NCBI GenBank assembly: GCA_015065205.1
Contig: SVQS01000002.1
Coordinates: 1-40,618, forward strand
Source: Oscillospiraceae bacterium
GTDB lineage: Bacteria > Bacillota > Clostridia > Oscillospirales > CAG-272
Reading direction: 5' to 3'
DNA: 40,618 nt
Below, in pieces: positions 11,321-28,927 of this stretch (the stretch's first letter is position 1; the number at the start of each line of letters is the position of its first letter). The position numbers and the translations under genes were made by a program. Under the pieces are notes generated by a model. That model ran no database searches. It saw only the letters and a list, made by a program, of their open reading frames with translations, and was not told the origin of the DNA.

Positions 11321-12820
11321 ATGAAACTAATACTTGACGGAAACATCAATTCGTACTATATCCAAACGCTCTGCATGATTTTCTTCCCGGGGGAGAAATT
11401 CGGTGTTGCCGAGCAGCTTGATCCGAATAGTCCCGAGCTCTACATTCGCCTTTGTGAGCACGACGACGGTGTCGAGACCTATGCTCGCATTACTGTAAAC
11501 GGTAAGAGTGCATCCGCGGAGAAGTACTATACCTATTCTGCCGATTACGGCAAGGATAAAACGGTAAAGCTTGCTTGCGGTGCCGTTGTAATTGCCGTTT
11601 GCGGTGAAATTATGGGCTATCGACCTGCGTGGGGAATGCTCACAGGCGTTCGTCCTTCAAAGGTAGCAACCGAACTTTTGCAGGTGGGACTTAGTAAAAC
11701 ACGTGTAAAACGCATTCTTACGGGAGAGTATTTTGTTATTCCCAAAAAGGCTGCTCTCGCAACTGAGGTAGCTCTCAATGAGCAAAAGCTCATTGGAACA
11801 CCGTCTCCCAAGGATTGCAGCGTTTATATCTCTATTCCATTTTGTCCCACAAGATGTTCTTATTGTTCCTTTGTTTCTTATACCTCACCAAAGCTCCTTC
11901 AGCTCATCCCGGAGTATTTAGAGCATCTTCTCTTGGATATGGAGTACACCTTTAAAAAGATAAAAGAACTTGGACTGCGTATTGCCACCGTTTATATTGG
12001 CGGTGGAACACCTACCATTCTCACGGCAGATCAATTACGCGTTCTCCTCTCCAAAATTGCAGAATTGACCGATGTTTCCGCACTTGAAGAGTACACACTT
12101 GAGTCCGGTCGTCCCGATACCATTACGGCAGAGAAGATGGCTGTCGCAAAAGAATACGGGGTTACACGCGTTTGTGTCAATCCGCAGTCGATGAGTGATT
12201 CAGTACTGGAAAACATCGGTCGTTCACACACCGCAGAGGATTTCTTGCGTGCATACGATATCGCTAGAGACTCCGGTATTGCAAATATCAACACCGACCT
12301 AATTGTAGGACTTCCGGGGGATAATTTTAAGACCTTTTCATCAACTTTTGATAAAATTCTCTCGCTTCGTCCCGAGAACATTACCGTACATACCTTCTGC
12401 ATCAAAAAAGCGGCAGAAATTCTACGTCAAGGCAACAATGTTTATTCCTTGCGTGGTGGCGATGCCGGTAAGTGTGTAGATTATTCTCAATTAAAAGCAC
12501 AAGAGGAGAACTATCTGCCATACTATATGTACCGTCAGAAGAACACCGTTGGCAACCTTGAAAACGTAGGATTCTCGCTTGAGGGATGTGAGGGACGCTA
12601 CAATGTTTATATGATGGAAGAGGTACATCCCATTTTTGCCCTTGGCGCAGGTGCTGTCTCCAAAATGGTTGATTATCACCCCAAAAAGGGAGGGAAACCT
12701 GTAATCGAAAGACTTTTTTATCCAAAATATCCTTACGAATATTTGCGTGATGAAAGCACGCAGAATAAGTTATTGGCGATGGAAGAATTCTACACTCGCC
12801 GCGAACTTTTGGATGACTAA
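11321..12820 (+). CDS. hemZ: Radical SAM coproporphyrinogen-dehydrogenase-like protein (HemZ type)
   Basis: 499 aa. CxxxCxxC radical SAM motif CPTRCSYCSF. A long N-terminal extension typical of HemZ, and the relA-dtd-hemZ order common in Firmicutes. Confidence 0.75.
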   Translation: MKLILDGNINSYYIQTLCMIFFPGEKFGVAEQLDPNSPELYIRLCEHDDGVETYARITVNGKSASAEKYYTYSADYGKDKTVKLACGAVVIAVCGEIMGYRPAWGMLTGVRPSKVATELLQVGLSKTRVKRILTGEYFVIPKKAALATEVALNEQKLIGTPSPKDCSVYISIPFCPTRCSYCSFVSYTSPKLLQLIPEYLEHLLLDMEYTFKKIKELGLRIATVYIGGGTPTILTADQLRVLLSKIAELTDVSALEEYTLESGRPDTITAEKMAVAKEYGVTRVCVNPQSMSDSVLENIGRSHTAEDFLRAYDIARDSGIANINTDLIVGLPGDNFKTFSSTFDKILSLRPENITVHTFCIKKAAEILRQGNNVYSLRGGDAGKCVDYSQLKAQEENYLPYYMYRQKNTVGNLENVGFSLEGCEGRYNVYMMEEVHPIFALGAGAVSKMVDYHPKKGGKPVIERLFYPKYPYEYLRDESTQNKLLAMEEFYTRRELLDD

Positions 12821-12838
12821 AAACAAGGAATTATTCTG

Positions 12839-14128
12839 ATGAAAACAATTATTAAAAACGCAACCCTGCTTGCCGAAACAGGATATGGAGAGGGGAATTG
12901 GTGCCTAACCATTGAAGACAAGCGTATTGCAAGCATTACAAAAGAATTGCCCGATACAACGGGGGCTACTGTGATAGATGCCAAGGGAAACTTGCTCATA
13001 CCCGGCTTTTATAACGCACACTGTCATGCCGCTATGACGCTTTTTCGCGGTTACGGAGAGGATTTACCTTTGCAGAGATGGCTTGAAGAGCGCATTTTTC
13101 CTGCCGAGGATCGCTTAAACTATGAAAATGTAACGGTTGCCACCAAACTTGCAATTGCAGAAATGATCAAAGGTGGAATCGTATCTTTCTCAGATATGTA
13201 TATGTTTGAGGATGCAGTAGCCGAAGTGGTGCTCGAAACAGGCATTAAGGCAAATCTATCTCGTGCACTCGTGTCTTTTTCTCCCGATGCTAATATCGCC
13301 ACTGACAACCGTTTCAAAGAAGCGAAAGCACTCGTCGAAAACTATCAAAACGCTGATGATGATCGCGTAAAAGTTGATTTTTCCTTGCATGCAGAATATA
13401 CCAATCTTCCGCACTACATAGCGCAAGTCAGTGAATATACCGCAAAAAACGATTTGCGTATGCACATTCACCTTTCCGAGACCGAAAAGGAACACAACGA
13501 GTGTATTACTCGCCACGAAAAAACACCTGCAAAGTTGTTTTATGATCTGGGCGCTTTCAATACACCCACACTTGCCGCTCATTGCGTTTGGGTGAGTGAC
13601 GAGGACATTGCAATGCTTGCGGAAAAAGGTGTTAGCGTGGTACACAATCCTGTTAGCAACCTCAAACTTGGCAGTGGCGTGATGCCGCTGGGTAAAATGC
13701 TTTCTGCCGGCGTGAACATATGTTTGGGAACAGACGGTGTTGCTTCCAATAACCGCTTGGATATTCTACGCGAAATGCAAACGGCGGCTATTTTGCACAA
13801 GGGTATTTTGCTTGACCCCACCGCTACCACTGCTTCGCAAATGCCAAAGCTTGCCACGCGTAACGGAGCACTTGCACAAGGGCGTGAGGACTGCGGTGAG
13901 ATCCGTATCGGCGCGCGCGCAGATTTGGTGCTGATAGACCGAACATCTATTCATAATATGCCTTGCTTTGATGACTACGCAATGCTTTGCTACAGTGCAG
14001 AGCGCAGTGATGTCCTCATGACAATGGTCGATGGACGCATACTTTACCAAAACGGAACGTATACTCTTATTGATGAAGAACGCCTACGCTATGATGCGCA
14101 AAAGGTGTTTGCTCATTACTTTGATTAA
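12839..14128 (+). CDS. mtaD: Amidohydrolase, 5-methylthioadenosine/S-adenosylhomocysteine deaminase-like
   Basis: 429 aa. HxH metal site (NAHCHAAMT), LHIHLSET, and GTDG...SNN motifs of the MtaD/chlorohydrolase family. Confidence 0.7.
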   Translation: MKTIIKNATLLAETGYGEGNWCLTIEDKRIASITKELPDTTGATVIDAKGNLLIPGFYNAHCHAAMTLFRGYGEDLPLQRWLEERIFPAEDRLNYENVTVATKLAIAEMIKGGIVSFSDMYMFEDAVAEVVLETGIKANLSRALVSFSPDANIATDNRFKEAKALVENYQNADDDRVKVDFSLHAEYTNLPHYIAQVSEYTAKNDLRMHIHLSETEKEHNECITRHEKTPAKLFYDLGAFNTPTLAAHCVWVSDEDIAMLAEKGVSVVHNPVSNLKLGSGVMPLGKMLSAGVNICLGTDGVASNNRLDILREMQTAAILHKGILLDPTATTASQMPKLATRNGALAQGREDCGEIRIGARADLVLIDRTSIHNMPCFDDYAMLCYSAERSDVLMTMVDGRILYQNGTYTLIDEERLRYDAQKVFAHYFD

Positions 14129-14145
14129 CCGTGAGGTAAAGAACA

Positions 14146-15789
14146 ATGAACACAAAGTCGAACACAACCAAAAAAGTCTTCTTTTCGGGAGTTTTACTTT
14201 TGACAGTCTCAACAATTTTGGTCAAGGTTGTCGGCTTGTTTTATAAAATTCCCATGCTCTCGTATCTTGGTTCCGAGGGCATGGGTTATTTTCATTCTGC
14301 TTATGAAATTTACGCTGTTTTTTGTATCATTGCAACAGCGGGACTTCCCGTGGCACTTTCTGTGCTTGTTTCCGCAGCTTTGGCGGAAGGTAAAGAGAGG
14401 GAAGTAGAGCGCATTTGGCAGGTGTCACTTACGCTCTTTGTAATCATTGGTCTTTTGGGAAGTATTTTAATGTGGGCACTTGCGCGTCCCATTTGCAGAT
14501 GGATCAAAAGCGAGGATGCTCTGGGGTGTATTATATCGATCGCACCAACGCTTTTCTTTGTTTGCGTTTCTTCGGCAATTCGAGGATATTTTCAGGGATA
14601 CCAAAAAATGATGCCGACTGCCGTATCGCAATTATTGGAAGCTCTTGGCAAGCTTGTATTTGGTTTGTTGTTTGCGCATATTGCTTTGATACGAGGTGCG
14701 AGTGTACCGCTTCTTGCCGCTGCGGCCGGATGGGGTGTGACAGCAGGAACTGTTCTATCGACACTGTATCTTGTATTGGAAAGATTGCGTTTTCACAGAA
14801 AAAGTAGTGTTGTTAAAGCAGAAATTGATTTACCGCGACGCAGATATTCGGTAGAAAAGAATCTATTGCACATTGCTTTGCCGATCACGCTTGGCTCTTT
14901 TCTTATCAGCCTAACAAAAATAGTTGATATGAGTATGATATTGCGACGTTTGCAAGCCATTGGATATACGTCTGCCGAAGCAAATGAAGCATACGGTAGC
15001 TATACAACGCTTGCGATATCGGTTTTTGCTCTTTTACCAACCCTGCTCAACTCTATCGCTTTACCGCTTATACCGATTTTATCCTCTGCCATAGCAGGAG
15101 GGGATAAGGCAACCGAGCACAAGATGATAGAACTTTCTTATCGCATCAATGCACTCATAGCAATTCCGGCTTCTATTGGCATCACTTTATTTGCCAAACC
15201 GATTCTTTCGCTTTTGTTTGGCGGTCAAATGCAAGCAGTAGAGATAGCCGCGCCTTTGCTTTCATTATTGGGAATATCCGTCTTTCTTTCCTGTATGATA
15301 ACGGCTACAAATTCTGTTTTGCACGCATACAGAGAAGTCAGAAAGCCAATCTACTCTACGCTCGCAGGTGTTGTAACAAAGGGAATTACGGCGTATATTC
15401 TCATTGGAATTCCTGCCATCGGACTTTGGGGTGCCCCTATTAGTAGTTTTTTCTGCAATGCCGTTATCGTGACGCTGAATATGTATTTCGTTAGTAAGTT
15501 TTGCGCCCAAATCGATGTCAAATTACTTTTTGTTTATCCTACACTTCTGGGACTTCTTACAGTTGGAATCGGATACGGAGAGTATTTGTTCCTTTGCAAC
15601 CGTTATGGAGAAAAGGCGTTGACTACACTCATTTCTATGGCAACGGCGGCACTTTTGTATCTTGTTTTGGGATGCTTGTTCGGGTTGATATCGGAAGAAG
15701 ACATTTCTGCGCTTCCAATGGGGAAGAAGATTTGCAGTATTTTGTGGAAATTGCACCTTTTGTCGAGAAATGAATTGGAAAAAACTTAA
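14146..15789 (+). CDS. MOP-superfamily flippase (YabM/SpoVB/MurJ-like polysaccharide or lipid II flippase)
   Basis: 547 aa, about 14 predicted TM segments. It sits upstream of yabO-yabP-yabQ-divIC, as yabM does in Bacillus. Confidence 0.7.
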   Translation: MNTKSNTTKKVFFSGVLLLTVSTILVKVVGLFYKIPMLSYLGSEGMGYFHSAYEIYAVFCIIATAGLPVALSVLVSAALAEGKEREVERIWQVSLTLFVIIGLLGSILMWALARPICRWIKSEDALGCIISIAPTLFFVCVSSAIRGYFQGYQKMMPTAVSQLLEALGKLVFGLLFAHIALIRGASVPLLAAAAGWGVTAGTVLSTLYLVLERLRFHRKSSVVKAEIDLPRRRYSVEKNLLHIALPITLGSFLISLTKIVDMSMILRRLQAIGYTSAEANEAYGSYTTLAISVFALLPTLLNSIALPLIPILSSAIAGGDKATEHKMIELSYRINALIAIPASIGITLFAKPILSLLFGGQMQAVEIAAPLLSLLGISVFLSCMITATNSVLHAYREVRKPIYSTLAGVVTKGITAYILIGIPAIGLWGAPISSFFCNAVIVTLNMYFVSKFCAQIDVKLLFVYPTLLGLLTVGIGYGEYLFLCNRYGEKALTTLISMATAALLYLVLGCLFGLISEEDISALPMGKKICSILWKLHLLSRNELEKT

Positions 15790-17509: not shown

Positions 17510-17989
17510 ATGGCAGAAAAGAAAAACGAAGGACATAAAATCATAACTCAAAACAAAAAAGCCTGGCACGAATATTTTGTAGAAGAAAAATACGAAGCCG
17601 GCATAGCGTTGGCTGGTACTGAAGTAAAAAGCGTACGTGCAGGAACTGTCAATCTCAAGGATTCCTATTGCTCCTTTGAAGGCGGCGAAATCTTTGTGTT
17701 GGGCATGCATATCAGCCCCTATGAGCACGGCAACATATTTAACACCGATCCGATGCGCAAGAAAAAACTTTTGATGCATCGTAGAGAAATTATGAAGCTG
17801 CAGGGGTTGGTACAGCAAAAAGGATATACCGTTGTACCTCTTGCGCTTTATTTTTCGGGCAGTCACGTCAAGGTAGAGCTTGGTCTTTGCCGAGGAAAAA
17901 AGCTTTATGACAAACGAGAAAGCGATGCAAAGCGTCAGGCCGACCGTGATATTGACAGACTTATGAAAGACAAATCACATCAAGATTAA
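17510..17989 (+). CDS. smpB: SsrA-binding protein SmpB
   Basis: [30 protein letters not shown]..., and a [10 protein letters not shown]... C-terminal basic tail. Confidence 0.93.
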
Positions 17990-18033: not shown

Positions 18034-19284
18034 TTATCTCTTGTTTAAAACATCTTTTTCGTAGTCTATTACAGAATTGAACCAACTCTCATCGCCAATA
18101 GTATTTGCACGTGCACAAAGCTCGTTCCAAACATCACCAACGGGGTAAAGCTTAAGTTCTTCTTGCAGCATCAAAAGTTCCGTAAAAGATTGGCTATCTT
18201 GCAGTTCTTTGAGACGGTCTTGCGGCATCAGAAGAGCCGTAAGAAGCGACTTTTGTACCGAGCGCATACCAATGACCCAAGCCGCAATGCGGTTGATAGA
18301 AGCATCAAAATAGTCGGTTGCCAAAATGACACGGTCGAGTGCATTGTTGCGTACGACCTCTTTCATCATTTCCTGCGTCTCATCGTCATATCTTACAACG
18401 TGGTCCGAATCCCAACGCACACCACGCGTAATATGAAGCGCGATTTTGGGATTGAAGCAGAGAAGGGCGGAAATCTTATCGGAAACAACTTCCGTAGGAT
18501 GATAATGTCCGTTGTCCATCAGGGGAACGATACCGCGCGTCATTGCATAAGAGAGGGCAAATTCGGCAGAGCCTGCTGTATAAGACTCCAAACCGATGCC
18601 AAACACCTTTGATTCGAGCGTTACATAAACAAGATTTTTATCGTAACCGCAACCAAGAATTTGGTCAAGAGAATCCATAAAGCGCATACGGGGGCCGAGA
18701 CGGTCAGCGGGAATATCTTTGAATCCATCCGGAATCCAAATGTTCATCAGGCAAGGGAAGCCTGTTTCGCGTGCAAAATATTCCGATATGCGAATACAGG
18801 CGATACCGTGACGAATCCAAAATGCGCGAATTTCTTCATTTGGGTTGGTAAGGGTTCCGTTTTCTGCCAAAGGATGGGAAAAATAGGTGGGATTGAAATC
18901 AAGGCCGATGCCGCGTTCCTTTGCAAAAGCAACCCATTTGGCAAAATGCTCTGGCTTAATGGCGTCACGGTCAGCAATTTTTCCGTCTTCATAAATGCCG
19001 TAGCAAGCATGAACGTTGACCTTATGCTTACCTGGGATGAGGGAGAAGGCCTTGTCGATATCCTGCATCAGCTCGTCGGGGGTATGTGCGGCTCCGGGGT
19101 AGTTACCCGTAGCTTGAATACCGCCGGTCAGCTCACCGGAGTTTTCAAAGCCTTTGACGTCATCGCCTTGCCAGCAGTGCATCGAGATGGGAATATTCAG
19201 CATTTTTTCAATTGCTGCTTCGGTATCAATGCCAATAGCGGCATATCTTTCTTTGGCTATTTGATAAAGTTCCTTTTGTGTCAT
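18034..19284 (-). CDS. rhaA: L-rhamnose isomerase
   Basis: 416 aa. SMHCWQGDDVKGFE and downstream blocks typical of RhaA. AAGGAG RBS. Confidence 0.9.
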   Translation of the reverse strand: MTQKELYQIAKERYAAIGIDTEAAIEKMLNIPISMHCWQGDDVKGFENSGELTGGIQATGNYPGAAHTPDELMQDIDKAFSLIPGKHKVNVHACYGIYEDGKIADRDAIKPEHFAKWVAFAKERGIGLDFNPTYFSHPLAENGTLTNPNEEIRAFWIRHGIACIRISEYFARETGFPCLMNIWIPDGFKDIPADRLGPRMRFMDSLDQILGCGYDKNLVYVTLESKVFGIGLESYTAGSAEFALSYAMTRGIVPLMDNGHYHPTEVVSDKISALLCFNPKIALHITRGVRWDSDHVVRYDDETQEMMKEVVRNNALDRVILATDYFDASINRIAAWVIGMRSVQKSLLTALLMPQDRLKELQDSQSFTELLMLQEELKLYPVGDVWNELCARANTIGDESWFNSVIDYEKDVLNKR

Positions 19285-20077: not shown

Positions 20078-20149
20078 CACGATAGAGGACTAAAAAAACC
20101 GCAAATTGGGATTGGAAAAAGAAATGAATAAAACGCGAACGAATAAATA

Positions 20150-20224
20150 TGCATATTCAACAAAATATTTTGCTGAATATTGGTAAAAATGCATCTTTAA
20201 AAGTAGATAAAAAAATGTTATAAT
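20150..20224 (+). promoter_or_regulatory. Promoter plus conserved upstream element of paralog 1
   Basis: TTTAAA (20196-20201), 17 nt spacer, TGTTATAAT (-10 at 20219-20224). The 33-nt block 20170-20202 matches 22493-22525 at 31/33. Two TGCAT motifs (20150, 20190) lie exactly 40 bp apart, as upstream of paralog 2. Confidence 0.5.
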
Positions 20225-20260
20225 GTACTTACCATACTTATTTATGAAAGGGGTTTTCTT

Positions 20261-22360
20261 ATGAAAAAGAAACTGACACGCATTTTGGCAGCTCTCTTGA
20301 TTGCCATGATGCTCATTCCCACACTTGCAACCTTCGCAGTAAACGCTGAAGGCGAAACCGGAGAGACCGGAGAAACAGGCGAAACCGGTGAAACCGGAGA
20401 AACCACTGAGACAATTGATATTAGCGACATTGTGAATGTTTACGAGTTGAACAAACTGAATGCTGCTCCTAACACAGAGAAGGTGGCCGGTGCTAAAGAC
20501 AAAGAACCAACCGATGAAGAGGGAATGCTGGCAAGCAAACCATTTACGGTTACAGCTGACGGTGATAGATACATTTATGTCGGCCCCTGTGCCGATCCTG
20601 AAAAGTTTGGTTTGAACGACCTTATCATGTATTGGTACAAAAAGGACGGATCCTACTATGGTGCTAAAGGTATTTACGAATTGAAGGGTGACGTAGCAGA
20701 TGGTGGTAACGTTGTCGACAGATTTGAGGATGGATCGGTCATTTTGAGAATTAAAGTAAATCAAAAATCCTACCAAAAATTTGCTGCTATTAAAGTTCCC
20801 ACCACATATGCTGATTTTATGCTTATAAGCGTTGAGCGCGCCTTTACGGTTGAAGAGTACTATGCATATGCGGATGCACAAGGCTGGGAACTTGGCGGTA
20901 CAGCTTTGCGTCCTCTCGATCCGGTTGTTGAAGACGAAGCGCCCGAAGACTATGAAGGCCTTTGGAATTTCTTCCCGCTTGAAGAAGATTTTGTAGCCCC
21001 CTCCACCCAAAAAGAAGCCACCAATAGGTATAAGATTTCAAAATACATTCCTGTAACTGAGGGTGATATTGTTAGAATTGGTGCAGTTAGTACAAAAGAA
21101 ACACATCACATTATTTACGCCTACAGTGATGAAAAGATTCCCGGCGAAAACACTGAGGGACCTGTTGTTTACGAATACAAAGAAACCCAAAAGTATAAAA
21201 AGGGTGACTATGGTGTGGATTTTGTAGAAAACATTGGCTATGATTGTGCTATTCATTCCTACACCGTTCCAGAGGGTGTTTCCTTTATCAAAGTTGTAGC
21301 TCCCGAAAGCCTTTACGGAAGCGGGGATATTTTAGTAACCAAAAACCAGCCCTTTAATGCTACATCACTTCGTACTGCCCTTGATATTCCCGAGCTTTCT
21401 GCACAAGCAAAAGCACACGATTTCTATGGCAAAACAGCACTCTTTGTAGGTGACTCCATACTTTACGGTGAATATGATACTCCCAATTCCTTCCGTAGTC
21501 CTTATACATCCTTTGCAAGACGTTTTGCTCTTGCTACCGGTTTGATTCCTACCGTTTATTCCGCTAACGGTGCAACCATTGGTAAGGTAGTTGGCAAACC
21601 CAACATTAAGCAAACATCCGACCTCATAAGAACTCTTTCCGCTAAAAAACAGTATGATATGGTTATTTTCCAAGGCGGCATCAACGATGCACGTCAAGGT
21701 CTCGCTGTTGGTGAAATTCTCTCCGTAGATACCGCGCGCGAGATTTTGGCTGAACCTGAACGTTTAGAAACCTTTGCAGGTGGCTTGCAATTGATGTTCT
21801 ACGATGCACTCAACAAATGGACAGAGGCAGAGTTCTACTATATTGCAGACTACAAAGTAACATCTGATGCTGTGAATGGTAAAGACATGAGTACATACTA
21901 TGCACAAGCTAAAGCTCTTTGCGAAATCTACGGTATTCACTACATCGACCTTTACGGTGATACAGCACTCTATACAAGCTTCGACTATAATAACGCCGAA
22001 CTCTTTGCTGACGATAAGTTCACGCCCTTAGCATCTACTTATGATTTGTTGTTCCCGACACTCCTTAGTCTGTTTGATAAATCTTTGAGCGAAGAGTTGA
22101 CCAATCCTTTTGCCGGTACTGATGAACTTGCGCCTCCTCCTGTTGCCGAACCCGAGGGCCTTGATATTGGCATCATTATTGCCATTGTTGCGGCAGGTGT
22201 AGTTGTTCTTGCCGGTGGCGGTTTTGCGCTGTACTGGTTTGTAATCAGAAAGAAAAAGGTAGCAAAACCTGCTAATGTCGAAGCGGAAGCTCCTGCTTCT
22301 GAACCCGAAGCAACAACTACCGAAGAATCCACTTCCGATGAAGTTAAAAAAGACGAATAA
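20261..22360 (+). CDS. Secreted multidomain protein, paralog 1: signal peptide, (GET)6 repeat, two unassigned N-terminal modules, SGNH/GDSL-hydrolase-like domain (His of DxxH replaced by Thr), C-terminal TM anchor and acidic tail
   Basis: Signal peptide ending AVNA/EG. SGNH blocks ALFVGDSILYG, ANGATIGK, FQGGINDA. Block V reads DDKFTP (no His). TM helix IGIIIAIVAAGVVVLAGGGFALYWFVI then RKKK (22166-22258). Clear paralogy with the next two genes. Confidence 0.8.
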   Translation: MKKKLTRILAALLIAMMLIPTLATFAVNAEGETGETGETGETGETGETTETIDISDIVNVYELNKLNAAPNTEKVAGAKDKEPTDEEGMLASKPFTVTADGDRYIYVGPCADPEKFGLNDLIMYWYKKDGSYYGAKGIYELKGDVADGGNVVDRFEDGSVILRIKVNQKSYQKFAAIKVPTTYADFMLISVERAFTVEEYYAYADAQGWELGGTALRPLDPVVEDEAPEDYEGLWNFFPLEEDFVAPSTQKEATNRYKISKYIPVTEGDIVRIGAVSTKETHHIIYAYSDEKIPGENTEGPVVYEYKETQKYKKGDYGVDFVENIGYDCAIHSYTVPEGVSFIKVVAPESLYGSGDILVTKNQPFNATSLRTALDIPELSAQAKAHDFYGKTALFVGDSILYGEYDTPNSFRSPYTSFARRFALATGLIPTVYSANGATIGKVVGKPNIKQTSDLIRTLSAKKQYDMVIFQGGINDARQGLAVGEILSVDTAREILAEPERLETFAGGLQLMFYDALNKWTEAEFYYIADYKVTSDAVNGKDMSTYYAQAKALCEIYGIHYIDLYGDTALYTSFDYNNAELFADDKFTPLASTYDLLFPTLLSLFDKSLSEELTNPFAGTDELAPPPVAEPEGLDIGIIIAIVAAGVVVLAGGGFALYWFVIRKKKVAKPANVEAEAPASEPEATTTEESTSDEVKKDE
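20351..20413 (+). repeat. In-frame 9-bp tandem repeat encoding six GET triplets followed by TET
   Basis: ggcgaaacc ggagagacc ggagaaaca ggcgaaacc ggtgaaacc ggagaaacc actgagaca. Imperfect at synonymous positions. Confidence 0.9.
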
Positions 22361-22371
22361 ATCTTAAACAA

Positions 22372-22412
22372 CAAGGGACGGTAAGACCAAGGTTTTACCG
22401 TCCCTTGTTTTA
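22372..22412 (+). terminator. Rho-independent terminator after paralog 1
   Basis: CAAGGGACGGTAA-loop(gaccaaggtt)-TTACCGTCCCTTG then TTTT. Homologous to the terminator at 26741-26780. Confidence 0.8.
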
Positions 22413-22472
22413 CAACCTCGATTTTCAAAATTCTGATTTTGCTTAGAAAAGGCGAGGGAAGCGTATGCAATG

Positions 22473-22547
22473 TGCATTTTGTTCAAAAAAAGTTGTTGAA
22501 AATTGGTAAAAATGCATCTTTAAAAAAATATGCTAAAGTGTTATAAT
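22473..22547 (+). promoter_or_regulatory. Promoter plus conserved upstream element of paralogs 2-3
   Basis: TTTAAA (22519-22524), 17 nt spacer, TGTTATAAT (-10 at 22542-22547). ATTGGTAAAAATGCATCTTTAAAA (22502-22525) is identical to 20179-20202. TGCAT at 22473 and 22513 (40 bp apart). Confidence 0.5.
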
Positions 22548-22584
22548 GTTTATATATTATTTTCTTGAAGAAAGGGGTTTTCTT

Positions 22585-24669
22585 ATGAAGAAAAAACTGG
22601 CACGCCTGCTGGCTGTTATATTGATTGCTATGATGCTCATTCCCACACTTGCAACTCTTGCAGTAACCGCTGATGAGGGGGCTAACGAAACAATTAACAT
22701 TGACGATATTAAAAATGCTTATACGTTAAGAGCCCTTGACGCCGCCCCCAGCGTGGAAACAAAAGACGGCGAACCAACTTATGAAAAAGGAATGCTGGCA
22801 AGCGATCCCTTTGCGGTTACAAGAGATGGTGATAAATACATTTACGTAGGTCCTTGTCCCGAACCTACAGATGCCAATTACAACAACCTTGTTCTGTATT
22901 GGTACAAAAAGAACGGTGATTACTATGGAGCTAAGAAAATGGGGGAATTACAAGGCGACGTAGCCGATGGCGGTAACATTGTTGATAGATTCCCGGATGG
23001 TTCTGTTATTTTGAGAATTAAGATCTCCAATGCAACCAACCATAAGTTTGCAGCCATCAAAGTTCCCACAACTTTTGCCGATTATATGCTCGTAACCGTT
23101 GAACGGTCCTTCACAAAGGATGATTATTATGCTTATGCCGATGCCCAAGGTTGGGATATCGAAAGCGTAGGTCTTCGCCCCGCAATGGCTGATGAAGCCC
23201 CCGATGACTATGAAGGTCTTTGGAATCTCTTCCCCCGCTTGACCGACCGTGATCCGTTGCTCCGTCAACACCAAAACACTACCTACGTTGACTCCGAGTT
23301 CATTCCCGTTGTCGAAGGTGATGTTATTACGATGGGTGCAATCGATATGAATGCCAATAAAGACATCCTGATTACATACGATGCTAAATTGACCAAGGTA
23401 AAAAGCTACCGGCATACCAATATAAGTTTTGAGCTCGAAGAAGAACTTGAATATGACTTTGGAATCTATTCCTTTATCGTTCCGGAAGGTATTTCTTACA
23501 TCAAAGCATCCGTTCACAGTGGTATCTATAATGATGGAGATATTCTGGTAACCAGAAACCAACCCTTTACAGGTTCAGAACTTCGTGAAGCACTCGAAAT
23601 CGCTGAGCTTTCTGAAGAAGCAAAGACACACGCTTTTTACGGTAAAGAAGCACTCTTTGTGGGTGACTCTATCAGTTATGGTTCTTACGATACACCTCCC
23701 ACGTATCGCAATCCCTCTGCATCTTGGGCAAGACGCTTGGCGCTGACCACTGGTCTTATTCCTACCAATGTTTCTTATCCCGGCGCAAGCGTTGGTAAAA
23801 CCGGCTTGAGCAATGTTAAGTGGGAATATGACCTCTTGAAGTCGGAGCTCGCTTCCGCGAAGAGTTATGATATGATAGTTTTCCACGGTGGCGTTAATGA
23901 TGCACGTCAAAATGTATCTGTTGGCACAGCACTTCCGTCCGACACTGACCGCAAGGTTTTGGTTGAAGAGAACCGTTTGGCTACCTTTGCAGGTGGTTTG
24001 CAGTTGATGTTCCATGACGCTAAAGAAAAGTGGCCTGAGGCTGAATTCTACTTTGTTGCAAACTTTAAGCTGGTTTCCGACAGCGTAAGGGGCAAGGATA
24101 TGAGCGAATACTTTGCTCAAGCAAAGATTCTTTGCGCCGAATACGGTGTTCACTACATCGACCTCTACAACGATGTTGCGCTTTATGAGACCTTTGATTA
24201 TGAGAGTAACGAGTTCCTTCCCGACTTGATTCACCCCGTAAGCACTGCCTACGATATCCTGTTCCCAACAATCCTCCGTTTGTTTAACGAAACTCTTGAG
24301 AACAAGGACGATCCGGTCATTCCTGATACTCCCGAGGTAACTACTCCAGAGGAGACCACTCCTGAGGAAACTCCCCCCGAAGAGACAACTCCAGAGGTAA
24401 CTACTCCTGAAGATACCACTCCCGAAGAAACTACTCCAGAGGAGACCACTCCTGAGGAAACTATCCCGGAAGAAACTACTCCTGAGGAAACTACGACTCC
24501 CGAGGAATCTGCCACTCCGGACACAGATAAAACCCCTGAAGAAGAGGAGCACGTTTGCAAAGAAGTAAGCGGATGGAAAGCTTTTTGGAATAGCATTATG
24601 AATTTCTTCCGCAGATTGTTCGGTCAACCCGAGCTTTGCAAGTGCGGCGAAACTATTATGAAAAAGTAA
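22585..24669 (+). CDS. Secreted multidomain protein, paralog 2: signal peptide, two unassigned N-terminal modules, SGNH/GDSL hydrolase with complete Ser/Gly/Asn/Asp-His blocks, (TPEET)n linker, conserved Cys-flanked amphipathic C-terminal tail
   Basis: Start at MKKKLARLL with the RBS GAAAGGGG shared with paralog 1; the ORF-track start 22546 lies in the -10 box. ALFVGDSISYG, YPGASVGK, FHGGVNDA, PDLIHP (His550 at 24232-24234). Tail CKEVSGWKAFWNSIMNFFRRLFGQPELCKCGETIMKK. Confidence 0.8.
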   Translation: MKKKLARLLAVILIAMMLIPTLATLAVTADEGANETINIDDIKNAYTLRALDAAPSVETKDGEPTYEKGMLASDPFAVTRDGDKYIYVGPCPEPTDANYNNLVLYWYKKNGDYYGAKKMGELQGDVADGGNIVDRFPDGSVILRIKISNATNHKFAAIKVPTTFADYMLVTVERSFTKDDYYAYADAQGWDIESVGLRPAMADEAPDDYEGLWNLFPRLTDRDPLLRQHQNTTYVDSEFIPVVEGDVITMGAIDMNANKDILITYDAKLTKVKSYRHTNISFELEEELEYDFGIYSFIVPEGISYIKASVHSGIYNDGDILVTRNQPFTGSELREALEIAELSEEAKTHAFYGKEALFVGDSISYGSYDTPPTYRNPSASWARRLALTTGLIPTNVSYPGASVGKTGLSNVKWEYDLLKSELASAKSYDMIVFHGGVNDARQNVSVGTALPSDTDRKVLVEENRLATFAGGLQLMFHDAKEKWPEAEFYFVANFKLVSDSVRGKDMSEYFAQAKILCAEYGVHYIDLYNDVALYETFDYESNEFLPDLIHPVSTAYDILFPTILRLFNETLENKDDPVIPDTPEVTTPEETTPEETPPEETTPEVTTPEDTTPEETTPEETTPEETIPEETTPEETTTPEESATPDTDKTPEEEEHVCKEVSGWKAFWNSIMNFFRRLFGQPELCKCGETIMKK
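24322..24549 (+). repeat. In-frame Thr/Pro/Glu-rich pentapeptide repeat linker (TPEET-like units)
   Basis: PDTPEVTTPEETTPEETPPEETTPEVTTPEDTTPEETTPEETTPEETIPEETTPEETTTPEE... Contains a perfect 34-nt direct repeat (24339-24372 and 24429-24462). Confidence 0.9.
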
Positions 24670-24712
24670 TTTTTGGTACACTATATATGATATTTAAGAA
24701 AGGGGATTTCTT

Positions 24713-26725
24713 ATGAGAAAAAATCTTACCCGTGTCCTGTCAGCTTTGCTGATTGCTATGATGCTCATTCCCGCGTTCGCTTCTCTGGCCGTTAGCGCAG
24801 AAGAGGGAACAGGCTCAACAATCGACATCAGTGACATTGAAAATCTCTACAAACTGAAAAAACTTGACGCTGCTCCCAGTATGGAAAAAGTAGCCGGTGC
24901 CAAAGATGGTGAACCTACCGAAGAAAATGGAATGTTGGCAAGCGAATCTTTTGCTGTTACAAGAACTGGTGATAACTATATTTACGTTGGTCCTTGTCCT
25001 GACCCTCGTATTGAAGCGAATTGGAAGGCGCTTGATTTTATCGTTTATTGGTATAACAAAGACGGTAAATACACCGCTCAAAAAAAATTTATGGAGTTAG
25101 GCAATCCTGATTCAAGTGGTACATCCTATCCTAATATCGTTGACGAATTCCCGGATGGATCTGTTATTCTGAAAATTAAAAGCAGTTCCACTTATAAATT
25201 TGCAGCCTTGAAGCTCCCCACAACTTACTCTAATTGTATTCTTGCAACCTCCGAACGTCCTTTTACAGTGGAAGAGTACTATGCATACGCAGATAAAGAA
25301 GGTTGGCCGATTGACGGTACACTGCGCCCCATCCCTCCCGCAACAGCAGATCCGGCTCCCGAAGGTTATGAGGGACTTTGGAATCTCTTCCCGAGATCGG
25401 GTGAATACGATGCAACGCTCACACAACAAAATGCTGTTAATGAGTACCAATTGTCCAAATATATCCCCGTAAGTGAGGGCGACGTCATCACTATGGGTGC
25501 TATCAAATCCAAAGAGACAAGAAGTATTCTGTACACTTACAGTGATGAATTGTTGATTTCTGATTATAGAGAAATCAGACAGTATCAGAGAACCGATTTT
25601 GGTATCAATTTGGTGGAAAACCTTGGAGAGGATTTTGCAATCTATTCATTTGAAATCCCTCAAGGTGTATCGTATGTAAGAGTTCGCACTCGCCTTGGTG
25701 TTTACAATAACGGTGATACTTTTGTTACCAAAAATCAACCTTTTACCGGTGCAGAAATGCGCGCAGCTCTTGCTATCCCCGAGCTTTCCGAGGAAGCAAA
25801 GGCACATCCTTTTTACGGTAAAAAGGCACTCTTTGTAGGTGATTCTATCAGCTACGGTTCGTACGATACACCTTTGGCATATAGTATTCCTTCCACATCC
25901 TTTGCAAGACGTCTTGCTCTTGCTACCGGTCTTATTCCTACCAACATTTCTTACCCGGGAGTAACTGTTGGAAAAACCAAATCGGGCAACGCAGTAACCG
26001 AATACGATTTGTTAAAGACAGTACTTATCACCAAAAAGAGCTACGATATAATCGTTTTCCAAGGTGGCATCAATGATGCTCTTAAAAACGTTCCGGTTGG
26101 CGAAGCACTTGCAGCCGATACTGACCGCAAGGTTTTGCTCGAGAATGATCGTTTGGCTACTTTTGCAGGCGGCTTACAATTGATGTTCCACGATGCAAAA
26201 ATCAAGTGGCAGAATGCTGAACTTTATTACATTGCCAACTACAAGGTAACTGACGCTGCTACAAACGGCAAGGGTATGGCTGAGTATTATGCACAGGCAA
26301 AAGCACTCTGTGAAGCATACGGCGTTCATTACATTGATCTTTACAATGATACTGAACTTTACAAAACATTTGACTATACAAACGCTGAACTCTTTGCAGA
26401 AGATCTCTTTACCCCCACAAGTGCGGCATATGATCTTTTGTTCCCAACGGTTTTACGTTTGTTTAATGAAACGCTCAAGAGCAGTGAAGTTGTCGTTGAG
26501 CAAACCGCTTCCGCAGAGGCCGCCCCCATTCAAACTGCTCCCGTAAAGATGTCCGCAAAGCAACCCGTAGTTGCTGAAGCAAATGGTAATACCGATGAAG
26601 CAAATAATTGCCAAGAAGTTAGCGGTTGGAAAACGTTTTGGAATTCCATTGCAAATTTCTTCCGCAGATTATTCGGCCAATGTGAAATTTGTGTTTGCGG
26701 CGAAGCAATTACAAAAGTAAAATAA
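24713..26725 (+). CDS. Secreted multidomain protein, paralog 3: same architecture, SGNH-like domain with His replaced by Thr, non-repetitive linker, conserved Cys-flanked amphipathic C-terminal tail
   Basis: Only 43 bp after paralog 2 with no terminator, so probably co-transcribed. ALFVGDSISYG, YPGVTVGK, FQGGINDA. Block V reads EDLFTP (Thr at 26411-26413). Tail CQEVSGWKTFWNSIANFFRRLFGQCEICVCGEAITKVK. Confidence 0.8.
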   Translation: MRKNLTRVLSALLIAMMLIPAFASLAVSAEEGTGSTIDISDIENLYKLKKLDAAPSMEKVAGAKDGEPTEENGMLASESFAVTRTGDNYIYVGPCPDPRIEANWKALDFIVYWYNKDGKYTAQKKFMELGNPDSSGTSYPNIVDEFPDGSVILKIKSSSTYKFAALKLPTTYSNCILATSERPFTVEEYYAYADKEGWPIDGTLRPIPPATADPAPEGYEGLWNLFPRSGEYDATLTQQNAVNEYQLSKYIPVSEGDVITMGAIKSKETRSILYTYSDELLISDYREIRQYQRTDFGINLVENLGEDFAIYSFEIPQGVSYVRVRTRLGVYNNGDTFVTKNQPFTGAEMRAALAIPELSEEAKAHPFYGKKALFVGDSISYGSYDTPLAYSIPSTSFARRLALATGLIPTNISYPGVTVGKTKSGNAVTEYDLLKTVLITKKSYDIIVFQGGINDALKNVPVGEALAADTDRKVLLENDRLATFAGGLQLMFHDAKIKWQNAELYYIANYKVTDAATNGKGMAEYYAQAKALCEAYGVHYIDLYNDTELYKTFDYTNAELFAEDLFTPTSAAYDLLFPTVLRLFNETLKSSEVVVEQTASAEAAPIQTAPVKMSAKQPVVAEANGNTDEANNCQEVSGWKTFWNSIANFFRRLFGQCEICVCGEAITKVK

Positions 26726-26740
26726 AGCATAACAATTATA

Positions 26741-26780
26741 AAGAACGGCAAAGCCAAGGTTTTGCCGTTCTTTATTTTTG
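26741..26780 (+). terminator. Rho-independent terminator after paralog 3
   Basis: AAGAACGGCAAA-gccaagg-TTTTGCCGTTCTT then TATTTTT. Confidence 0.85.
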
Positions 26781-26807
26781 AATTAAGAAGGGGAAGTAGT
26801 TAACTAT

Positions 26808-26854
26808 GCTTGCAGAGTGGGTTCGGCGTGCGGGTGCCAATGCAAAAGGTCTGC
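26808..26854 (+). repeat. 47-bp tRNA-Arg-derived minihelix-like element, copy A
   Basis: GCTTGCAGAGTGGGTTCGGCGTGCGGGTGCCAATGCAAAAGGTCTGC. 46/47 identical to copy B, 178 bp downstream. Confidence 0.9.
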
Positions 26855-26985
26855 TAAAAAGCAAATCTTGCTTTTGTCATTATAACGGGAATTTCACCTA
26901 CGGTGAATATATCCTCGTCCTGTGCCTGACAAGCAAGCTTGTCGATCTTCGGACGGGATATGCGAACCCAATTCTGCTGCGCTAC

Positions 26986-27032
26986 GCTTGCAAAGTGGGT
27001 TCGGCGTGCGGGTGCCAATGCAAAAGGTCTGC
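26986..27032 (+). repeat. 47-bp tRNA-Arg-derived minihelix-like element, copy B (also the left arm of the palindrome with the tRNA 3' half)
   Basis: GCTTGCAAAGTGGGTTCGGCGTGCGGGTGCCAATGCAAAAGGTCTGC. It contains GGGTTCG, TGCGGGT-G-CCA and the trailer ATGCAA..GGTCTGC of the adjacent tRNA, but in the opposite orientation. Confidence 0.9.
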
Positions 27033-27052
27033 CCATAAGGCAGACCTTGCAT

Positions 27053-27127
27053 TGGCACCCGCAACGGGAATCGAACCCATAACTACCCCTTAGGAGGGGG
27101 CTATTATATCCATTTAACTATGCAGGC
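27053..27127 (-). tRNA. tRNA-Arg (anticodon CCT), CCA encoded
   Basis: Hand-folded cloverleaf of GCCTGCATAGTTAAATGGATATAATAGCCCCCTCCTAAGGGGTAGTTATGGGTTCGATTCCCGTTGCGGGTGCCA. 7-bp acceptor stem, 4-bp D stem, anticodon stem GCCCC/GGGGT with loop CTCCTAA, T arm ATGGG-TTCGATT-CCCGT, discriminator G. Confidence 0.85.
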
Positions 27128-28030: not shown

Positions 28031-28927
28031 ATGAATATCGGCGAACGTATTCGTGAATTGCGTATCTCCAAGCTTATGACGCAGGCAGATCTTGCCGGAG
28101 ACCGCATCACAAGAAATATGTTAAGCTGTATCGAAAATGGTTCTGCCAATCCTTCGCTTTCTACAATCGTTTACATAGCTGGCCGTCTTGGTGTCCCTGC
28201 AGGCTTCTTGCTTGCCGAGCAAGGGGATGAAATGGCCTATCGTAAAATGAGCAACCTTTCCAACATCAAAAAAGCCTATACAACCGGAGATGTGCAAAGC
28301 TGTAGAAGTCTTTGTCTCTCCGGTTGTCCTGAACCGGATGATGAAATCAGTTTATTGCTTGCGAATTGCGATGCGGGTATTGCCGTAGAGGAGTTTTGGA
28401 GTGGTAAATTGCGTTCTTCATGCCGTTTTTTTGATGAAGCACTTAGCTATGCCGAAAAAACCATTTACTCGACCGATGCCATCGAGGCGGAGATTCGAAT
28501 ATATTTTCGTTATATGGAACGGATCTCACATACGTTGTATTCCGATTTGTTAGACGAAGAAAAGGTGTTAAGCGTAAAAAGCAACACGATTTTGTCACAG
28601 TATTTGGATGCATTATACGCGTTGGACAACAGTGATACGTCGCTTGCCGAGCAACTAATTGAACAATTGGCCAATTTGAGCGAAAATAGCTTCTTTAAGG
28701 CGCATTTGCAAAACAAACTGCTAATTACCGATGGAAACTACAAACAAGCTCAAAAAGCCTTACAACAGCTCCTGCAAGATAGTAATATGCCACTCAACAA
28801 AATTGAGCTTTACACAGTGCTTGAAGATTTGGAAATCTGCTGCCGCGAGAATGAGGATTACAAAAACGCTTATCGCTTTGCCAGCGAAAAGGTAGAATTG
28901 TTAGAACAGCTCTTACAGGAATATTAA
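28031..28927 (+). CDS. XRE-family HTH transcriptional regulator with about 230 aa helical (TPR-like) C-terminal domain
   Basis: IGERIRELRISKLMTQADLAG...ISCIENGSANPSLSTIVYIAGRLGV is a Cro/C1-type HTH. The remaining residues are Leu/Glu/Gln-rich helical. Size (298 aa) and layout resemble RNPP/Rgg-type regulators (inference). Confidence 0.7.
   Translation: MNIGERIRELRISKLMTQADLAGDRITRNMLSCIENGSANPSLSTIVYIAGRLGVPAGFLLAEQGDEMAYRKMSNLSNIKKAYTTGDVQSCRSLCLSGCPEPDDEISLLLANCDAGIAVEEFWSGKLRSSCRFFDEALSYAEKTIYSTDAIEAEIRIYFRYMERISHTLYSDLLDEEKVLSVKSNTILSQYLDALYALDNSDTSLAEQLIEQLANLSENSFFKAHLQNKLLITDGNYKQAQKALQQLLQDSNMPLNKIELYTVLEDLEICCRENEDYKNAYRFASEKVELLEQLLQEY

Follow-up and report, generated by a model that had tools for sequence, protein, structure and literature searches.

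Three adjacent genes in a 40,618-nucleotide (nt) stretch of contig SVQS01000002.1 (assembly GCA_015065205.1, Oscillospiraceae bacterium), referred to here as the window, form a tandem array that we named g1, g2, and g3. We propose that the three products are surface glycan-binding scaffolds in which g2 is an O-acetylesterase and g1 and g3 are noncatalytic binders; on balance, we think this reading probable. Each protein would be exported by a Sec signal peptide and tethered by its C terminus to the outer face of the cytoplasmic membrane, and a Pro/Thr/Glu-rich stalk would keep its SGNH domain and two beta-sandwich modules at a distance from the lipid surface. With a Ser-Gly-Asn-Asp-His set, g2 would be a working esterase, most likely an O-acetyl esterase acting on polysaccharide. 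The other two, noncatalytic or strongly impaired, would bind the same class of substrate through their modules and the remnant of the active-site pocket. The array would then pair substrate capture, by g1 and g3, with deacetylation, by g2.

The initial annotation of this DNA had described three homologous genes on the same strand. We found the open reading frames (ORFs) in place, and every shared peptide string that it had quoted is present in the alignment. Over an end-to-end alignment with about 270 invariant columns, g2 has 55% and g3 has 58% identity to g1; identity between paralogs of the array is 55 to 58%, which is far beyond chance. The proposed architecture, consisting of a Sec signal peptide, twin unassigned modules, an SGNH domain, a linker, and an anchor, was likewise confirmed in all three (Table 1).

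Two of the three SGNH domains lack the block V histidine

In each protein, a domain of about 225 amino acids (aa) scores above the 32.9-bit cut-off of Pfam Lipase_GDSL_2 (PF13472). Block I (FVGDSI), with the nucleophile Ser, and block III (GGINDA or GGVNDA), with the oxyanion Asn, are present in g1 to g3. Block V reads DLIH in g2 (aa 547 to 550), DKFT in g1 (aa 585 to 588), and DLFT in g3 (aa 564 to 567), and the family alignment shows no His anywhere in the block V segment of g1 or g3. We are confident of the block V assignment, since this part of the family consensus pairs with DGLH in 7bxd, a GDSL-like protein of Collinsella aerofaciens; blocks I (GDS) and III (GGxND) align to 7bxd as well. 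Hence, g2 has all catalytic residues and carries the DxxH signature of block V, whereas g1 and g3 have Thr for the His and lack that signature. We read g1 and g3 as members of the fold and not as canonical catalytic members of the SGNH superfamily. The relation of all three to solved structures is remote. A 63-sequence SGNH profile searched against PDB gave 7bxd as its best match (E = 2e-8), together with 4m8k and 3dc7, which are uncharacterised GDSL-like proteins, and a single-sequence SGNH query of PDB returned no match.

Was the loss of His confined to this array? Among 102 relatives, the block V residue is His in 72 and Thr in 30, and the Thr-bearing proteins form a monophyletic group in a neighbor-joining tree of the family. 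All 30 retain the nucleophile Ser. The oxyanion Asn is kept in 25 of them; it has been lost in 5/30, versus 1/72 in the His clade. Nor has the Thr clade (n = 30) acquired a conserved His, Lys, or Glu of its own to replace the missing residue. Thr-clade SGNH domains have a mean pairwise identity of 68%, and the ratio of SGNH to N-terminal divergence is 0.78, versus 0.49 in the His clade; they are conserved but relatively relaxed. In an SGNH lipase, His-to-Ala substitution abolishes activity (PMC10779480).

Because the His is lost, the Asn is lost in some members, no substitute residue has appeared, and constraint on the SGNH domain is relaxed, we read g2 as the catalytic member and g1 and g3 as probable pseudoesterases whose fold is still functional and selected. 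The inactivity of g1 and g3 is something we infer from these residues. All three carry an SGNH domain, but with the block V His lost, g1 and g3 are not the equals of g2 as esterases; the guarded wording of the initial annotation, a cell-surface esterase or binding-protein family, is supported.

A noncatalytic SGNH binder would not be without parallel. CtCE2 of Clostridium thermocellum couples an N-terminal beta-sandwich to an SGNH-fold esterase whose active site also binds cellulose noncatalytically (PMC2661963), and it therefore offers a precedent. The array proteins resemble it in placing beta-sandwich accessory domains before an SGNH esterase and in belonging to polysaccharide-degrading Clostridia, with dockerin-bearing relatives. 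They differ from it in having two modules instead of one and in having membrane anchors. Moreover, g1 and g3 would have reached a binding-only state through loss of the His, whereas CtCE2 retains its His. We found no sign that g1 to g3 belong to CE2 itself: the modules have no CE2_N or other Pfam match, and no CE2 structure was among the PDB profile matches at E ≤ 1.

The N-terminal region consists of two related beta-sandwich modules

Neither the first ~340 aa of g1 to g3 nor their tails matched any Pfam or NCBIfam family at E ≤ 1. It had been suggested that the N-terminal region holds two distantly related modules with shared start and end motifs. We cut module profiles from the 102-sequence family alignment (residues 36 to 218 and 219 to 352) and compared them with hhalign. 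Module 1 aligned to module 2 with a probability of 93.6% (E = 2e-7; 94 columns; 23% identity), and the alignment recovered both the S-x-x-[FI]-x-V..GD start and the QPFT end. Controls pairing either module with the SGNH domain gave probabilities of 0.2 to 0.3%. Given this difference, we regard the two modules as the products of an ancient internal duplication. AlphaFold2 modelled g3 residues 30 to 355 as two beta-sandwiches, each closed by a short helix, with a predicted local distance difference test (pLDDT) score of 93.2; module 2 modelled alone scored 92.8. Module 2 is the domain that diverges most between the paralogs (35 to 47% identity).

What are these modules related to? Foldseek searches of PDB with the two-module model and with module 2 gave no significant match (best E values, 3.6e-3 and 0.04; TM-score, <0.4). 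The weak matches were generic: gingipain adhesin, the DeCLIC N-terminal domain, PA14/Flo, and several carbohydrate-binding modules (CBMs). The module 2 profile matched none of the PDB sequences at E ≤ 10. The earlier statement that the N-terminal region cannot be assigned to a named family therefore holds in profile and structure searches of Pfam, NCBIfam, and PDB. In BFVD, Foldseek found eight matches to module 2 at E < 1e-3, of which the best had an E value of 1.8e-5, a probability of 1.0, and a root mean square deviation (rmsd) of 3.2 Å over 103 columns. Most were phage minor tail proteins and phage SGNH/GDSL proteins. Judged from predicted structures, the nearest structural relatives of the modules are domains of phage virion and tail proteins.

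Searched against 1.84e9 representative proteins, the module 2 profile found 127 clusters, often with 2 to 9 copies of the module per protein. When 66 module-bearing proteins were scanned with Pfam, 49 had an SGNH domain and 7 had a dockerin; there were single cases of SLH, CBM9, CBM35, and Laminin_G_3, and no Pfam family covered the module itself. AraC-type regulators were also among the matches (E down to about 1e-6). AraC genes with the module also occur at related loci, which here are contigs from metagenomes or metagenome-assembled genomes (MAGs), labelled L001 onward, with proteins labelled P. The AraC genes at L057 8716-9849 (-) and L059 684-1838 (-) are divergent from those for the dockerin-bearing proteins P0110 and P0115, respectively. 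Their N-terminal domains score 36 to 43 bits with the module 2 profile and 20 to 29 bits with the module 1 profile; a conventional cupin-type AraC protein in L059 had no score with the module profiles. Re-use of the module as the cytoplasmic sensor domain of a regulator, beside an enzyme gene, is the strongest argument at hand that it recognises a defined ligand. Judged by its context, the ligand is probably a sugar or an oligosaccharide, and the modules would be ligand-binding domains, most likely glycan-binding ones.

Enzyme genes and module-only genes alternate in distant relatives

At L010 to L028 (for example, L013 2941-11509), we found tandem arrays of up to six genes in which two-module proteins of ~360 aa without an SGNH domain alternate with proteins that have two modules plus SGNH. 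We had considered giant multimodule proteins at these loci and rejected them, as the genes are separate and in tandem. At the C terminus, the module-only proteins have P[PV]TGD followed by a hydrophobic segment and KKREN, and the SGNH-bearing proteins have GCG followed by a transmembrane (TM) helix and KKKD. The P[PV]TGD ending resembles the PPxTG sortase signal of Clostridioides difficile SrtB substrates. Overall, the anchors of distant relatives comprise PPxTG-like signals, GCG-plus-TM tails, SLH domains, and dockerins, with type I dockerins confined to P0110, P0112, and P0115. Because noncatalytic paralogs repeatedly adjoin catalytic ones, these loci support the reading of capture plus enzyme. 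From the domain content of these genes, we regard noncatalytic binding paralogs beside catalytic ones as a recurrent feature of the family.

Export and C-terminal anchors

The predicted signal peptides, assigned by reading the sequence, end in AVNA/E (g1), AVTA/D (g2), and AVSA/E (g3). There is no lipobox Cys at the cleavage site; the first Cys is at aa 110 in g1, 91 in g2, and 95 in g3. We found no LPxTG or NPxTG motif and no NCBIfam sorting-signal match in the three proteins, nor a dockerin by Pfam. On these grounds, we rejected sortase, lipoprotein, and dockerin anchoring for g1 to g3. Their surface topology is instead inferred from signal peptides and C-terminal anchors. Two short in-frame tandem repeats, GET in g1 and TPEET in g2, both lie in linker regions, and the g1 ortholog in L052 is shorter than g1 by one residue (698 versus 699 aa).

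The g1 anchor is a predicted 27-residue TM helix (mean hydrophobicity, 0.93; hydrophobic moment, 0.10). In g2 and g3, its place is taken by a Cys-containing sequence that we call tail B, with the consensus E-E-H-x-C-x-E-V-S-G-W-K-A-F-W-N-x-I-x-N-F-F-R-R-L-F-G-Q-P-E-L-C-x-C-G-E. Invariant in the tail alignment are C, NFFR, LFG, E, C, C, and G. Members without the His have an extra Cys, so that there are usually four potential ligands. The tail B helix has a hydrophobic moment of 0.63 to 0.66 at a mean hydrophobicity of about 0.1; shuffled sequences have a mean moment of 0.26, and only 0.15 to 0.2% of them reach the observed value. The tails of g2 and g3 thus have the features of an amphipathic anchor (a C-terminal helix, a high moment, and a basic face), and we expect them to bind the membrane.

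In Escherichia coli, MinD has the membrane-targeting sequence GFLKRLFGG, and penicillin-binding proteins 5 and 6 (PBP5/6) have a C-terminal amphipathic anchor helix. The tail B core, WxxFWNxIxNFFRRLFG, is likewise amphipathic, and its FxRRLFG ending is like the MinD targeting sequence and many CoxG C termini. Unlike these, tail B is found on Sec-exported proteins, which would place it at the outer leaflet, and it is bracketed by an H/C-x-C ... C-x-C-G cluster. CoxG is reported to be anchored in the membrane by its C terminus (PMC13525633).

How widespread is this ending? The full tail B also terminates an S8 subtilase of >1,400 aa in L001 (25-4291), and an NFFRRLFG helix without CxCG ends a Pel9A-like beta-helix protein and an immunoglobulin-like surface protein. 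In 12 of 17 loci returned (L035 to L049, from JGI soil and freshwater metagenomes), NFFRRLFG lies within 14 residues (1 to 14) of the stop codon. The full-length proteins of these loci resemble CoxG/SRPBCC, as confirmed by Pfam in L035, and carry NFFRRLFG after a low-complexity linker and a hydrophobic stretch. NFFRRLFG thus appears to be a widespread C-terminal membrane-anchor ending. A tail B profile searched against 5.8e9 proteins returned just five short fragments, and a metagenome scan for NFFR[RK]LFG yielded CoxG tails for the most part and not one additional complete tail B.

Tail B is preceded by HxYDxxCDxxCxxCG repeats in the fourth gene of L052 and in the L001 subtilase, and it looks like one such repeat split by the amphipathic helix. 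Metal binding is possible. Stand-alone ORFs of 80 to 85 aa, made of a Pro/Glu-rich linker and tail B with no signal peptide, were found in two MAGs beside the same 617-aa gene (L055 489-746 and L056 6001-6243); they could be remnants or small anchored peptides. That the C-terminal anchors are exchangeable, as had been proposed, is evident from several TM/tail B switches inside clades of the neighbor-joining tree. Such swaps occur even between orthologs, since the g2 ortholog in L033 has a TM anchor and not tail B.

The array is conserved among relatives and under purifying selection

Each paralog of the window is closer to its orthologs in other samples than to its own array paralogs. L031, L033, and L052 all repeat the order of the array: a g1-like gene (Thr, TM), a g2-like gene (His), and a g3-like gene (Thr, tail B). 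Identities to g1/g2/g3 are 68/75/82% in L031, where a fourth copy is present, 64/78/72% in L033, and 79/82/95% in L052, which has a fourth gene encoding 789 aa (12184-14553). The more distant L009 has the same smpB-rhaA-rhaD synteny and a single His/TM copy. Because the orthologs are closer than the paralogs and gene order is conserved, a recent strain-specific duplication is ruled out; the array is old, and its three paralogs diverged anciently. Nor did we find a characterised family that matches the proteins over their full length.

The number of array copies ranges from 1 to 4 across loci. Five of six syntenic MAG contigs stop within a few hundred bases after the first copy, so the paralog repeats probably break short-read assemblies here. 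All relatives come from MAGs labelled Eubacteriales bacterium or Clostridia bacterium, several of them from the gut of sheep, goat, yak, cattle, and deer.

We computed ratios of nonsynonymous to synonymous substitution rates (dN/dS) between the window and L052, the closest strain. Whole-gene values were 0.21 for g1, 0.16 for g2, and 0.17 for g3, and those of the SGNH domains were 0.20, 0.06, and 0.06, respectively; every domain fell between 0.06 and 0.23. With values this low everywhere, there is no gene-wide positive selection, and all three genes are under purifying selection. The family had been called diversifying; positive selection of that kind was not seen in any domain. In the same comparison, dS was uneven along the genes, being 0.06 in the g3 SGNH domain (25808-26482), 0.44 in g3 module 1 (24854-25300), and 1.36 in g2 module 2, with flanking DNA 88 to 92% identical. 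This unevenness suggests recombination or gene conversion among strains or paralogs.

The location had also been described as typically accessory. We found it to be no loose insertion, as both the smpB-(rhaA-rhaD)-array position and the order of g1, g2, and g3 are conserved in related organisms. Is the array tied to rhamnose catabolism? In L007 and L033, no rhaA-rhaD pair separates smpB from the array, and just one distant relative, P0115 (L059 4626-12347), lies in a rhamnose cluster, beside genes for an iron-type alcohol dehydrogenase (Fe-ADH), a class II aldolase, RhaA, an FGGY kinase, and an AraC regulator. We therefore rejected a firm functional link; the connection is weak and no more than a lead, with rhaA-rhaD being an orphan pair in a housekeeping region.

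Genes, transcription signals, and surroundings of the array

The initial annotation had proposed that a whole promoter-gene-terminator cassette was duplicated, and the flanking signals agree with this. The two promoter regions (20146-20257 and 22469-22580) are 71% identical and share TTTAAA and TATAAT boxes 17 nt apart with an extended TG. The terminator stretches (22373-22411 and 26740-26778) are 77% identical. An identical ribosome-binding site (RBS), GAAAGGGG(T/A)TTTCTTATG, lies upstream of the starts at 20261, 22585, and 24713. We rejected a longer g2 ORF starting at 22546 as spurious, because that start falls within the -10 box and the RBS is placed for a start at 22585. Folding of the 43-nt spacer between g2 and g3 gave no hairpin; with no terminator in this gap, g3 is probably cotranscribed with g2. 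Two transcription units, g1 alone and g2-g3 together, are plausible from these predicted signals.

Table 1. Predicted features of the g1-g2-g3 array, in window coordinates
Feature	Coordinates	Strand	Residues	Description and basis
g1 promoter/5' region	20146..20257	+		Consensus scan; direct repeat of 22469-22580
g1 promoter boxes	20196-20201; 20219-20224	+		-35 TTTAAA; TG-extended -10 TATAAT; RBS GAAAGGGG at ~20247
g1	20261..22360	+	699 aa	His-less (Thr) SGNH paralog, C-terminal TM anchor; ORF, alignment, PF13472 41 bits, clade
g1 Sec-type signal peptide	20261..20347	+		MKKKLTRILAALLIAMMLIPTLATFAVNA|E; no lipobox Cys; by inspection; conserved across family
g1 (GET)n repeat	20350..20412	+		In-frame 9-nt repeat just after signal peptide; repeat finder, alignment
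g1 module 1	20447..20881	+	aa 63-207	Mapped from g3 AlphaFold2 model and family alignment
g1 module 2	21008..21382	+	aa 250-374	
g1 SGNH	21419..22093	+	aa 387-611	Ser399, Asn475, Asp585; Thr588 for His (codon 22022-22024)
g1 TM helix	22166..22246	+	aa 636-662	Followed by RKKK and ~33-aa acidic tail, predicted cytoplasmic; hydropathy scan
g1 terminator	22370..22409	+		18-bp stem, then U run; inverted repeat; -30.4 kcal/mol, z -7.4
g2-g3 promoter/5' region	22469..22580	+		-35 22519-22524; TG-extended -10 22542-22547
g2	22585..24669	+	694 aa	Sole paralog with complete SGNH catalytic set; tail B; PF13472 59.7 bits
g2 module 1	22726..23148	+	aa 48-188	
g2 module 2	23263..23595	+	aa 227-337	
g2 SGNH	23632..24303	+	aa 350-573	Ser362, Asn438, Asp547, His550 (codon 24232-24234)
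g2 Pro/Thr/Glu-rich linker	24307..24534	+		TPEET repeats, 15-nt period (24328-24524); repeat finder, alignment
g2 tail B	24544..24666	+		EEHVC-EVS-[GWKAFWNSIMNFFRRLFG]-QPELCKCGETIMKK; amphipathic helix 24571-24624
g3	24713..26725	+	670 aa	His-less (Thr) SGNH paralog with tail B; PF13472 52.2 bits
g3 module 1	24854..25300	+	aa 48-196	AlphaFold2 pLDDT 93.2
g3 module 2	25424..25771	+	aa 238-353	AlphaFold2 pLDDT 92.8
g3 SGNH	25808..26482	+	aa 366-590	Ser378, Asn454, Asp564; Thr567 for His (codon 26411-26413)
g3 tail B, four-Cys variant	26597..26722	+		C633, C657, C660, C662; amphipathic helix 26624-26677
g3 terminator	26738..26775	+		Intrinsic; homologous to g1 terminator; -27.9 kcal/mol, z -9.4

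The flanking genes are as first described: RhaA and a class II aldolase (rhaD) are encoded upstream on the - strand, and tRNA-Arg(CCT) lies at 27053-27127 (-). In the window, smpB ends at 17989 and rhaA starts at 18034; L031 (4539-5438) and L052 (2367-3266) have a DUF1963 gene between the two, which the window does not have. Other neighbors are ABC transporter, MurJ-like, YabP/YabQ, and DivIC genes. An Rfam search of the array region found the tRNA only.

A 58-nt direct repeat, 91% identical, occurs at 26804-26861 and 26982-27039, adjoining the tRNA-Arg gene. Its core, GGGTTCGGCGTGCGGGTGCCA, resembles the 3' end of a tRNA on the opposite strand, and the second copy pairs with the real tRNA-Arg 3' end as a long hairpin. 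In L052, the fourth family gene sits between the g3 terminator and the region of the 58-nt repeats, which may therefore mark the junction at which that gene was gained or lost. Further downstream, 1.3 kb from the array, is a gene for a 298-aa HTH_3/HTH_19 (XRE-type) protein (28031-28927, +). A 36% identical homolog is encoded directly upstream of a family gene in a sheep-colon MAG (L025 8748-9638), and we consider the XRE-type protein a candidate regulator of the array.

Kinship with phage virion esterases and alternative readings

A beta-sandwich followed by an SGNH domain is common to g1 to g3 and phage virion esterases, and module 2 superposes on phage proteins at the 3.2-Å rmsd given above. 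In PHROG, phrog_11541 matched across module 2 and SGNH (E = 7e-19 and 6e-15), and phrog_5240, annotated as tail fiber protein, matched the SGNH domain (E = 2e-17). Clostridium phage phiCP34O gp13, a 455-aa esterase encoded beside the coat gene in the phage structural module, has a related SGNH domain (47.8 bits); it is as long as the top BFVD match and may be the same protein. The PDB group of 3dc7 and 7bxd has been cited for phage-tail SGNH domains (PMC12115436). A tblastn search of 50,697 phage genomes gave one weak match, gp13 was the sole real phage match by sequence, identity to real phage genes was at most 23%, and an IMG/VR scan with module patterns found no relatives. Unlike phage virion esterases, g1 to g3 have Sec signal peptides, membrane anchors, and housekeeping neighbors. 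Prophage or mobile-element cargo was rejected for the locus: housekeeping genes flank the array on both sides, the GC content is uniform, and the 40-kb window holds no integrase and no phage genes. We conclude that phage virion esterases are the nearest relatives of the module-plus-SGNH unit and that the locus is not phage-borne.

Perhaps, then, the target is the bacterial envelope? The array could act on O-acetylated peptidoglycan, wall polysaccharides, or teichoic acids, whether the cell's own or its neighbors', as a system of remodelling or competition. Both the nearest structural relatives of the module and the PHROG matches belong to phages of Gram-positive hosts (tail, virion, and SGNH proteins); together with gp13 and the phage-tail citation of the closest PDB group, they point this way. 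The window also contains the MurJ-like, YabP/YabQ, and DivIC genes of envelope and sporulation. However, the dockerin-bearing relatives, the occasional CBMs, the AraC sensors, life in the herbivore gut, and the proximity of rhamnose genes both here and in L059 point to plant or dietary glycans. Dockerins and the occasional CBM9 or CBM35 in distant relatives fit plant-polysaccharide degradation in ruminant-gut Clostridia; one relative is encoded within a cluster for rhamnose utilisation, and in the window rhaA-rhaD directly adjoins the array. Moreover, AraC sensors that bear the module imply that the ligand is small and can be imported, as it is in catabolic regulons, and the long stalks point outward. 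We therefore consider an envelope target rather unlikely, while noting that glycan and envelope targets are not mutually exclusive.

Could all three proteins instead be active esterases? The Thr clade would then work by a modified mechanism, for example with a base that is assisted by water or substrate or that comes from a different loop or from a module, and the paralogs would be isoenzymes that differ in specificity. Noncanonical arrangements of the SGNH active site are known; a paper on CE20 reportedly describes a water-mediated catalytic triad. Almost every member of the Thr clade retains the Ser and the Asp residues of the GDS, ND, and DxxT motifs. The Thr itself is invariant (30/30), which suggests a selected role and not decay, and the SGNH domains remain under purifying selection. 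Yet no conserved His, Lys, or Glu was gained, the oxyanion Asn was lost more often than in the His clade, and SGNH constraint was relaxed, as seen also in the g1 SGNH dN/dS of 0.20. Removal of the His kills the SGNH enzyme in which it was tried, and the distant arrays hold paralogs without any SGNH domain, so that noncatalytic members are part of the logic of the system. We judge three active enzymes to be improbable. A lipid-directed reading would make the proteins lipases, lysophospholipases, or other GDSL enzymes, with the modules serving as structural spacers; it is very improbable. The Pfam name (GDSL-like lipase/acylhydrolase) and the annotation of the phage relative as a lysophospholipase L1-related esterase agree with it, but both names are generic; dockerin, CBM, and SLH occur as partner domains, and a module that is conserved, repeated, and re-used as a regulator sensor is a poor fit to an inert spacer.

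Several observations weigh against the pairing of capture with deacetylation that we favor. The SGNH domain is distant from any CAZy esterase with a solved structure, and the PDB proteins nearest to it are uncharacterised. Among solved CBMs, none matches the modules significantly (lowest E value in the Foldseek search of PDB, 0.04; TM-score, <0.4). The Ser is kept in 30/30 Thr-clade members and the g3 SGNH dN/dS is 0.06, so that residual or altered catalysis may persist. Substrate evidence for the array is all indirect, and signal-peptide cleavage, topology, and membrane binding by tail B are predictions.

Implications

Surface-anchored SGNH esterases with accessory binding modules are already known from polysaccharide-degrading Firmicutes. 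Uncatalogued are the module family, the old His-to-Thr clade, and the portable tail B anchor. We put forward, tentatively, three separate claims: an uncatalogued family of ligand-binding modules, a design that couples an esterase with capture by dead paralogs, and tail B as a new class of anchor. The module family may be common to Gram-positive surface proteins, phage virion esterases, and AraC sensor domains. The arrays may follow a recurrent design: a catalytic O-acetylesterase is encoded together with catalytically dead paralogs, which have Thr for the His or no SGNH domain and serve as dedicated lectins for substrate capture. Tail B, for its part, may be an amphipathic helix set inside a Cys/His knuckle, possibly a zinc knuckle, derived from an extracellular Cys-rich repeat and carried on Sec-exported proteins.

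The biology at issue is confined to uncultured gut Clostridia. There, automatic annotation labels all three proteins SGNH/GDSL hydrolase, with the result that esterases are overcounted in rumen and hind-gut metagenomes. An old, selected His-to-Thr clade encoded beside a probably active paralog would be a testable natural case of conversion from enzyme to lectin in the SGNH fold.

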